Source: Escherichia coli
Lineage (GTDB): Bacteria; Pseudomonadota; Gammaproteobacteria; Enterobacterales; Enterobacteriaceae
Direction: 5' to 3' (one strand)
Assembly: GCF_002854065.1 (NCBI RefSeq)
Contig: NZ_CP024147.1
Length of the DNA: 64,000 bases
Part shown: positions 6,901-9,900 of the stretch, one piece after another
How the letters are laid out: each line of letters starts with the position of its first letter
How positions within the stretch are numbered: position 1 is the stretch's first letter
Position numbers: made by a program

Positions 6901-9900
6901 GCGTGGTGAAACCGTTGGGCAAGAACTGGCGGGTAACCCAAAGGTCGCAATGGTCAGTATGACAGGCAGCGTCTCTGCAGGTGAGAAGATCATGGCGACT
7001 GCGGCGAAAAACATCACCAAAGTGTGCCTGGAACTGGGGGGTAAAGCACCAGCTATCGTAATGGACGATGCCGATCTTGAACTGGCAGTCAAAGCCATCG
7101 TTGATTCACGCGTCATTAATAGTGGGCAAGTGTGTAACTGTGCAGAACGTGTTTATGTACAGAAAGGCATTTATGATCAGTTCGTCAATCGGCTGGGTGA
7201 AGCGATGCAGGCGGTTCAATTTGGTAACCCCGCTGAACGCAACGACATTGCGATGGGGCCGTTGATTAACGCCGCGGCGCTGGAAAGGGTCGAGCAAAAA
7301 GTGGCGCGCGCAGTAGAAGAAGGGGCGAGAGTGGCGTTGGGTGGCAAAGCGGTAGAGGGGAAAGGATATTATTATCCGCCGACATTGCTGCTGGATGTTC
7401 GCCAGGAAATGTCGATTATGCATGAGGAAACCTTTGGCCCGATGCTGCCGGTGGTCGCATTTGACACGCTGGAAGATGCTATCTCAATGGCTAATGACAG
7501 TGATTACGGCCTGACCTCATCAATCTATACCCAAAATCTGAACGTCGCGATGAAAGCCATTAAAGGGCTGAAGTTTGGTGAAACTTACATCAACCGTGAA
7601 AACTTCGAAGCTATGCAAGGCTTCCACGCCGGATGGCGTAAATCCGGTATTGGCGGCGCAGATGGTAAACATGGCCTGCATGAATATCTGCAGACCCAGG
7701 TGGTTTATTTACAGTCTTAATGAGTGAAAGAGGCGGAGGTTTTTTCCCTCCGCCTGTGCGCGTCAGAGTTTAGCGAATTTTTCGAGGGTGCGAATAAGCT
7801 GCGTGACGAAGCCATATTCGTTATCGTACCAGGCGACCGTTTTCACCAGTTGTAAATCGCCCACGGCGGTAATTTCCGTTTGCGTGGCATCAAACACTGA
7901 ACCGAAATGGCTGCCAATGATATCGGAAGAGACTATTTCTTCATCGGTATAACCAAATGACTCGTTATTGGTGGTTGCTTGTTTAAGTGCGTTATTCACC
8001 TCTTCGGCAGTCACTTTTTTTCCGAGAATGGACACCAGCTCAGTGACCGAACCTGTTTTCACCGGTACGCGTTGCGCATGACCTTTCAGTTTGCCGCTCA
8101 GTTCCGGTATCACCAGACCAATGGCTTTTGCCGCCCCCGTAGTGTGGGGAATGATATTTTCTGCCGCGGCGCGTGAAGCACGTAAATCTTTACCACGCGG
8201 GCCATCCACCAGTGACTGGGTGCCAGTATAGGCATGAATGGTCGTCATCGTGCCGACTTCTATCCCGAAACTGTCATGCAAGGCTTTGGCCATCGGCGCA
8301 AGACAGTTAGTAGTGCATGATGCCACGGAAACAATGGTGTCGTTGCCATCCAGAGTGTCGTCATTGACGTTATAAACGATAGTTTTCATTTCACCGGCAG
8401 GGGCGGAAATCAACACCTTCTTCGCGCCAGCATCAAGATGCGCCTGCGATTTCTCGGCGGAGGTATAAAAGCCAGTACATTCGACAATGATTTCTGTACC
8501 TTTCGCTTTCCACGGAATATTTTTAGCCTCTTTTTCGGCGTAAACCGCGATACTTTTCCCATTAACGATAAGTGAATCTTCCGTAAAATCAACGCTCCAG
8601 GGGAACGGTCCGTAGTTTGAATCATGTTTCAGCAGGTAGGCGAGAATTTTTGGAGAAGTGAGATCATTAATAGCGACAACGTCTATGTTGCTTTTGACTT
8701 CAAGTAATCGACGCAACACCAGTCGACCGATACGACCAAAACCGTTAATACCAACTTTACTCATGGTTTTCTCCTGTCAGGAACGTTCGGATGAAAATTG
8801 ATCCTTTCCAGGCTTAGACCAGGATGGCGGGATGGGCAATCTCCATTCTTACAGTGAAACGTAACGTACTGAAAACGGGTGAACAATATTTAATGAAATT
8901 TTGAGAAAAGCCCGTTATGTTAACGGAAAATTATGTTAAAGCAGGAAATGTTATGAAAAATAAATACTCAAGGTTACAAATCAGCATTCACTGGCTGGTC
9001 TTTTTGCTGGTTATCGCAGCGTATTGCGCAATGGAGTTTCGGGGTTTCTTCCCACGTAGCGATCGGCCGCTCATCAACATGATTCATGTTTCCTGTGGCA
9101 TCTCAATTCTCGTGCTGATGGTGGTTCGTCTTTTGTTAAGACTGAAATACCCAACCCCGCCGATTATACCTAAGCCGAAACCGATGATGACGGGACTGGC
9201 GCATTTGGGACATTTGGTGATTTATCTCCTGTTTTTTGCGCTGCCAGTGATTGGTTTGGTGATGATGTATAACCGGGGCAACCCGTGGTTTGCGTTTGGT
9301 TTGACGATGCCTTACGCTTCAGAGGCCAATTTCGAACGGGTAGATAGCTTAAAGTCGTGGCATGAAACGCTGGCGAATCTGGGATATTTTGTCATCGGTT
9401 TGCACGCTGCGGCTGCACTGGCACACCACTATTTCTGGAAGGACAACACACTTCTACGCATGATGCCGCGTAAACGTTCCTGAAGGATATTTAAAGAAAA
9501 CGCCTGTACTAAAACCGACCCGTGGTACAGGCGAAGAATACGGGTCTACATCGGAAGCGCCTATTATATTTATTTGTATGACAAATAAAACCATAATCCT
9601 TGCCCATACGTCCATCTGGCTTATTTTTAATCAATTCACCCGATCTTTGATCTCATCAACGGTATCAAAATAAACCAGCGTATAACGTTCAAATCGAACA
9701 TAAGATTCGATAAACCATGGAGGTTATATGAAAAAACTGGCACTTATTTTGTTTATGGGAACGCTTGTTTCCTTTTATGCCGATGCTGGGCGCAAACCCT
9801 GTTCTGGTTCGAAAGGGGGGATCTCACACTGTACGGCAGGCGGCAAATTTGTCTGTAATGATGGTTCTATTAGTGCCTCGAAAAAAACATGCACTAACTG

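Follow-up and report, generated by a model that had tools for sequence, protein, structure and literature searches.

The analysed window, a stretch of 64,000 nucleotides of Escherichia coli DNA, carries on its minus strand a gapC gene flanked by aldA and cybB (Table 1). The gene order aldA-gapC-cybB-rydC-ydcA-hokB-trg is that of K-12 MG1655, and the position between a convergent aldA and a divergent cybB, as in K-12, marks the gene as the E. coli gapC orthologue. A continuous GAPDH frame of 333 amino acids with NAD-binding and catalytic-Cys motifs had been described at this site in the original prediction, which did not state its strand (minus); the open reading frame (ORF), the family and domain matches and the individual residues all agree with that description. 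Every one of 20,000 shuffled versions of the 1-kb gene contained an in-frame stop, and the probability calculated analytically for 332 codons without a stop at gapC composition is 2e-8, thus the frame is not explained by chance. The exact amino-acid sequence is already present at NCBI as WP_101969387.1. A horizontally acquired or island origin of the gene was ruled out by its GC content (0.478, near the values of the flanking genes), by its single locus in 5,417 of 5,426 complete E. coli genomes and by its orthologues across Enterobacteriaceae.

Table 1. Features of the gapC locus and segments of the window that differ from K-12 MG1655
Feature	Position in window	Strand	Remarks
aldA	6281-7720	plus	convergent with gapC
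GC-rich hairpin	7731-7755		9 bp; between convergent aldA and gapC; likely shared terminator
gapC CDS	7763-8764	minus	ATG-to-TGA ORF, 333 codons plus TGA stop; type I NAD-dependent glyceraldehyde-3-phosphate dehydrogenase
A7 run of gapC	8015-8021	minus	gene nt 744-750, codons Gly-Lys-Lys; A6 in K-12 (frameshift)
First base of gapC codon 39	8650	minus	gene nt 115; AAA (Lys39) in window; A to T in K-12, giving TAA
gapC-cybB intergenic region	8765-8952		188 bp, divergent; presumed site of gapC promoter (inferred position)
Shine-Dalgarno AGGAG	8771-8775	minus	6 nt 5′ of gapC ATG; read from sequence
cybB	ORF end at 9483	plus	divergent from gapC
RydC sRNA	9494-9557	minus	above Rfam gathering score; same site as K-12
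ydcA	9728-9901	plus	gene order as K-12
sok antitoxin RNA (hokB/sok locus)	10117-10268	minus	above Rfam gathering score; same site as K-12
Absence of K-12 IS609	21213/21214		insQ, K-12 1,503,161-1,504,908; clean junction
Extra 1.3-kb segment versus K-12	33315-34627		between patD and yncL
Replacement of K-12 yncG-yncH-rhsE-ydcD-yncI	43822-47670		ORFs 44600-45130, 45127-45483 and 45704-47191, all plus
Stretches unmatched in K-12	48975-49184; 61670-62304; 62631-64000		

Between the convergent aldA and gapC, the GC-rich hairpin folds as RNA with a free energy of −19.3 kcal mol−1 (z = −3.6; 0 of 200 shuffles folded as well) and is followed on the gapC strand by CTTTCACT. The hairpin was not called by a strict terminator scan; judged by its predicted fold, it is likely a terminator shared by the two genes. 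On the other side of gapC, an IS1 lies between cybB and gapC in BL21 (locus L011, 1-131) and in strain 100416 (locus L002, 7214-7911). The window has no IS1 at about 8765-8952, unlike 100416, its near-identical relative. In SCPM-O-B-7615 (locus L008), an IS1 is flanked by truncated copies of both gapC and aldA. The gapC locus looks like a recurrent target of IS1.

The gapC product reached 447.5 bits against TIGR01534 (NCBIfam, type I GAPDH; cut-off 367.2) in a full-length alignment, with residues 3-325 of the protein covering profile positions 1-330 of 330. The two Pfam domains are PF00044 Gp_dh_N (residues 3-102; 123 bits), which is the N-terminal NAD-binding domain, and PF02800 Gp_dh_C (residues 155-313; 195 bits), the C-terminal catalytic domain. 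The GxGxxG motif reads G8-F-G10-R11-I12-G13 and the catalytic Cys motif S149-C150-T151-T-N-C154, with His177, Thr180, Thr182, Thr209, Gly210 and Arg232 also conserved. Asp34 is present as well, an Asp typical of NAD-specific GAPDHs. Residue numbering throughout is that of PMC8615399.

The closest characterized protein is EcGAPDH1 (PDB 7C5F, 7C5H, 7C5P, 7C7K and mutants; PMC8615399), to which the window protein is identical at 331 of 333 residues. The two differences, Asn68 for Asp and Thr90 for Ala in the window protein, both fall within Gp_dh_N and are not among the catalytic or ligand-binding residues reported in PMC8615399. All of the latter residues are found in the window protein: Arg11, Ile12, Asp34 (one of the conserved NAD+-binding residues; PMC8615399), Ser120, Ser149, Cys150 and Thr151, together with the six from His177 to Arg232 listed above. 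EcGAPDH1 has a Km of 0.73 mM for glyceraldehyde-3-phosphate (G3P), is inactive as C150A and loses activity 10^3-10^4-fold as H177A or C150S, and its structures include a thioacyl intermediate and bound 1,3-bisphosphoglycerate (1,3-BPG) (PMC8615399). By analogy with this near-identical enzyme, the window allele would catalyse the NAD+-dependent phosphorylating oxidation of G3P; a crystal structure is available for the 99.4%-identical protein. Because of the same near-identity, the classical GAPDH mechanism can be applied: Cys150 would attack the aldehyde of G3P to form a thiohemiacetal, hydride would then pass to NAD+ with His177 as base to give a thioacyl enzyme, and phosphorolysis by phosphate would release 1,3-BPG from it.

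The annotation of K-12 MG1655 (NC_000913.3) gives gapC (b4493) as a 1001-bp pseudogene, likewise located between aldA and cybB. In alignment with it, the window gene shows 18 differing positions and a nucleotide identity of 98.2% (98.7% to BL21 and 98.3% to O157:H7). Two of the differences are disabling in K-12, namely the TAA at codon 39 and the loss of 1 bp from the A7 run, which leaves A6 at nt 744-749 and shifts the frame past codon 247. The remaining 16 comprise 13 synonymous and three non-synonymous ones (R18G, N68D and T90A). The window carries AAA and A7 at the two sites, with neither the stop nor the frameshift. That gapC is a pseudogene in K-12, as stated in the original prediction, is confirmed by the annotation and by the location of both lesions.

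Across complete E. coli genomes, a nucleotide search with the window gene as query found gapC in 5,417 of 5,426, with at least 80% of the query covered in 5,409. An exact match was found in 1,152 of the 5,426 genomes for a K-12 57-mer that includes the TAA, and in 1,040 for a K-12 56-mer that includes the A6, which puts the frequency of the K-12 lesions among complete genomes at about 19-21%. Of 60 match rows sampled at even spacing with K-12 gapC as query, the first 12 have the 1001-bp form. Carriers of the lesions include, besides K-12 derivatives, the human isolates 720632, VR50 and Survcare045, the poultry isolate MB57, the swine isolate ETEC1703 and the river-water isolate 1008S13. Intact gapC is the majority or default state, with about four fifths of complete genomes being without the K-12 lesions. 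It is also the ancestral state in E. coli, from which K-12 and a clade of about one-fifth of the genomes depart by the Lys39 nonsense mutation and the frameshift. These lesions appear to be older than the laboratory history of K-12 and to mark a natural clade. According to PMC2949598, laboratory strains have accumulated mutations in gapC; the sharing of the lesions by wild human, animal and river isolates qualifies this view. For annotation purposes, an uninterrupted copy of gapC is best taken as normal.

Inactivation of gapC was also found on other backgrounds. An ST648 strain carries a separate 1-bp deletion at nt 418, and O55:H7 USDA5905 carries A6 without the stop on a haplotype other than that of K-12, although some such single-base lesions in assemblies could be assembly errors. 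FACU 2024 has an additional deletion in gapC, and in SCPM-O-B-7615 gapC and aldA are both truncated in association with an IS1. Since several lineages have lost gapC independently, the gene is dispensable under some conditions.

The A7 run itself might be a recurrent and possibly reversible slippage site, by which gapC is switched off, and perhaps on again, in nature; if so, gapC would resemble a contingency gene and not a pseudogene peculiar to laboratory strains. Three observations favour such slippage: some 20% of complete genomes, wild isolates among them, share the K-12 lesions; a single A6 allele lies outside the K-12 type, on the unrelated O55:H7 haplotype; and the stop was matched in more genomes (1,152) than the A6 56-mer (1,040). 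However, the O55:H7 allele and the unequal counts could come from homopolymer assembly errors or from SNPs inside the 56-mer, and we regard recurrent slippage as improbable.

To gauge constraint on the protein, the window allele was compared with ten other gapC alleles by the Nei-Gojobori method. The dN/dS ratio ranged from 0.024 to 0.070, at dS of up to 0.27; because the ratio stays this low (0.02-0.07) at such synonymous distances, gapC is under strong, long-term purifying selection. Orthologues of 86-96% identity are found in E. albertii, Citrobacter, Trabulsiella, Klebsiella, Kluyvera and Yokenella. Within E. coli, gapC alleles reach up to 6% nucleotide divergence, as in ST648 (locus L006, 301-1301) and EC6868 (locus L009, 301-1302), where dS is 0.19-0.27 and the protein is barely altered. 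For a core gene of E. coli, divergence of up to 6% seems high, a hint that alleles at the locus are old or were imported.

Taken with its position and product, the window gene is, in our firm judgement, an intact gapC orthologue, that is, the second, bacterial-type GAPDH paralogue besides gapA, at the ancestral aldA/gapC/cybB site, which encodes an NAD-dependent phosphorylating GAPDH. It is distinct from GapA (PRK15425), the main glycolytic, eukaryote-like GAPDH: fold, both Pfam domains and chemistry are shared, yet the window protein scored 302.8 bits against a cut-off of 662. A GAPDH-fold enzyme of another specificity, such as an Epd/GapB-like erythrose-4-phosphate (E4P) dehydrogenase, an ArsJ-associated GAPDH or an NADP-dependent enzyme, could be read from the sizeable partial scores to the Epd models (280.2 bits for PRK13535 and 277.6 for TIGR01532) and to the ArsJ-associated family (306.4 bits for NF033735). 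These scores are nevertheless far under the respective curated cut-offs of 539, 530.55 and 450, with TIGR01534 the only one of these models to be passed; moreover, the NAD+-binding Asp34 is present, no arsJ adjoins gapC, and the reaction of the 99.4%-identical enzyme is the oxidation of G3P by NAD+ (PMC8615399). Another specificity is therefore extremely unlikely.

The frame could alternatively be intact but silent, as a decaying relic without function in the source lineage. Such a relic would fit the repeated inactivation of gapC (the K-12 clade, the ST648 deletion at nt 418, the A6 of USDA5905 and the IS1-associated truncation in SCPM-O-B-7615), as well as the outcome of a consensus scan for sigma-70 promoters on the gapC strand, where no strong or convincing site was found. 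Against it stand the low dN/dS, the conservation of orthologues across Enterobacteriaceae, the roughly 80% of genomes without the K-12 lesions and the high activity of the near-identical EcGAPDH1 (PMC8615399). In K-12, furthermore, a ChIP-seq peak of sigma-S RNA polymerase has been assigned to gapC_1/cybB (PMC4447067), and the window differs from K-12 by only 2 SNPs over the 188 bp between the two genes. A relic is thus very unlikely. Under carbon- and energy-limited growth of K-12, gapC_1 is among the genes with a 5.6-fold change in expression (PMC4512719). Preferential expression of gapC in fresh water and intact alleles in environmental isolates have been reported (Espinosa-Urgel & Kolter 1998, as cited in PMC2949598 and PMC1796617). 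Intact gapC in the window looks functional from its sequence, and it is probably expressed and useful in the source strain.

The gapC gene itself, its inactivation in K-12 and its integrity in other strains were already known, as were the structure and activity of its product. How often the K-12 lesions occur in the population, and their origin in a natural clade, refine this picture slightly. The textbook contrast that sets K-12 apart from most other E. coli is confirmed here, and the source strain is documented as non-K-12.

The lineage of the window was also addressed by direct comparison with complete genomes. Over its 64 kb, the window is collinear with MG1655 1,481,952-1,545,753 at 96.2-98.7% identity, with several insertions, deletions and replacements; together with the intact gapC, this upholds the original prediction of a non-K-12 lineage. 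The non-K-12 origin is indicated much more strongly by plain nucleotide divergence than by the state of gapC. Because only about 19-21% of genomes carry the K-12 lesions, an intact gapC is a weak lineage marker, which excludes only K-12 and the clade with the same lesions. No Clermont or MLST markers lie within the 64-kb window. When the two 25-kb parts 1-25000 and 39001-64000 were searched, at least 99% identity was found in only two of the 5,426 complete genomes, CUWW06 (wastewater) and 100416 (human stool, Gambia), whose near-identity refers to these two parts; the rest were at or below 99.0%. The gapC nucleotide allele is likewise uncommon, being matched at 99% identity or above in 57 of 5,417 genomes. 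A contig assembled from the public read set ERR3970133 matched 7 kb around gapC with one mismatch to the window.

From the intact gapC, other local differences such as islands had been expected in the window. Such differences do exist, but gapC itself predicts no islands. All structural differences from K-12 lie beyond gapC, at higher coordinates, with none before it (Table 1). The extra segment between patD and yncL holds one ORF (33523-34332, plus strand; 269 aa) with a hexapeptide-repeat transferase domain. The segment that replaces yncG-yncH-rhsE-ydcD-yncI encodes a 495-aa VgrG-like protein (Phage_GPD and Phage_base_V) besides two small ORFs for which no Pfam match was found, and it is followed at 47827-48963 by ydcC, a homologue of H-repeat transposases. 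The yddJ/yddK/yddL region (61670-64000) is also unlike that of K-12 and contains three ORFs, all on the minus strand (61923-62591, 62678-63187 and 63351-63998). Two of them gave no Pfam match; the third, which reaches the window end, encodes a Gram-negative porin domain that looks complete, at a site where K-12 retains no more than yddL, a short remnant.
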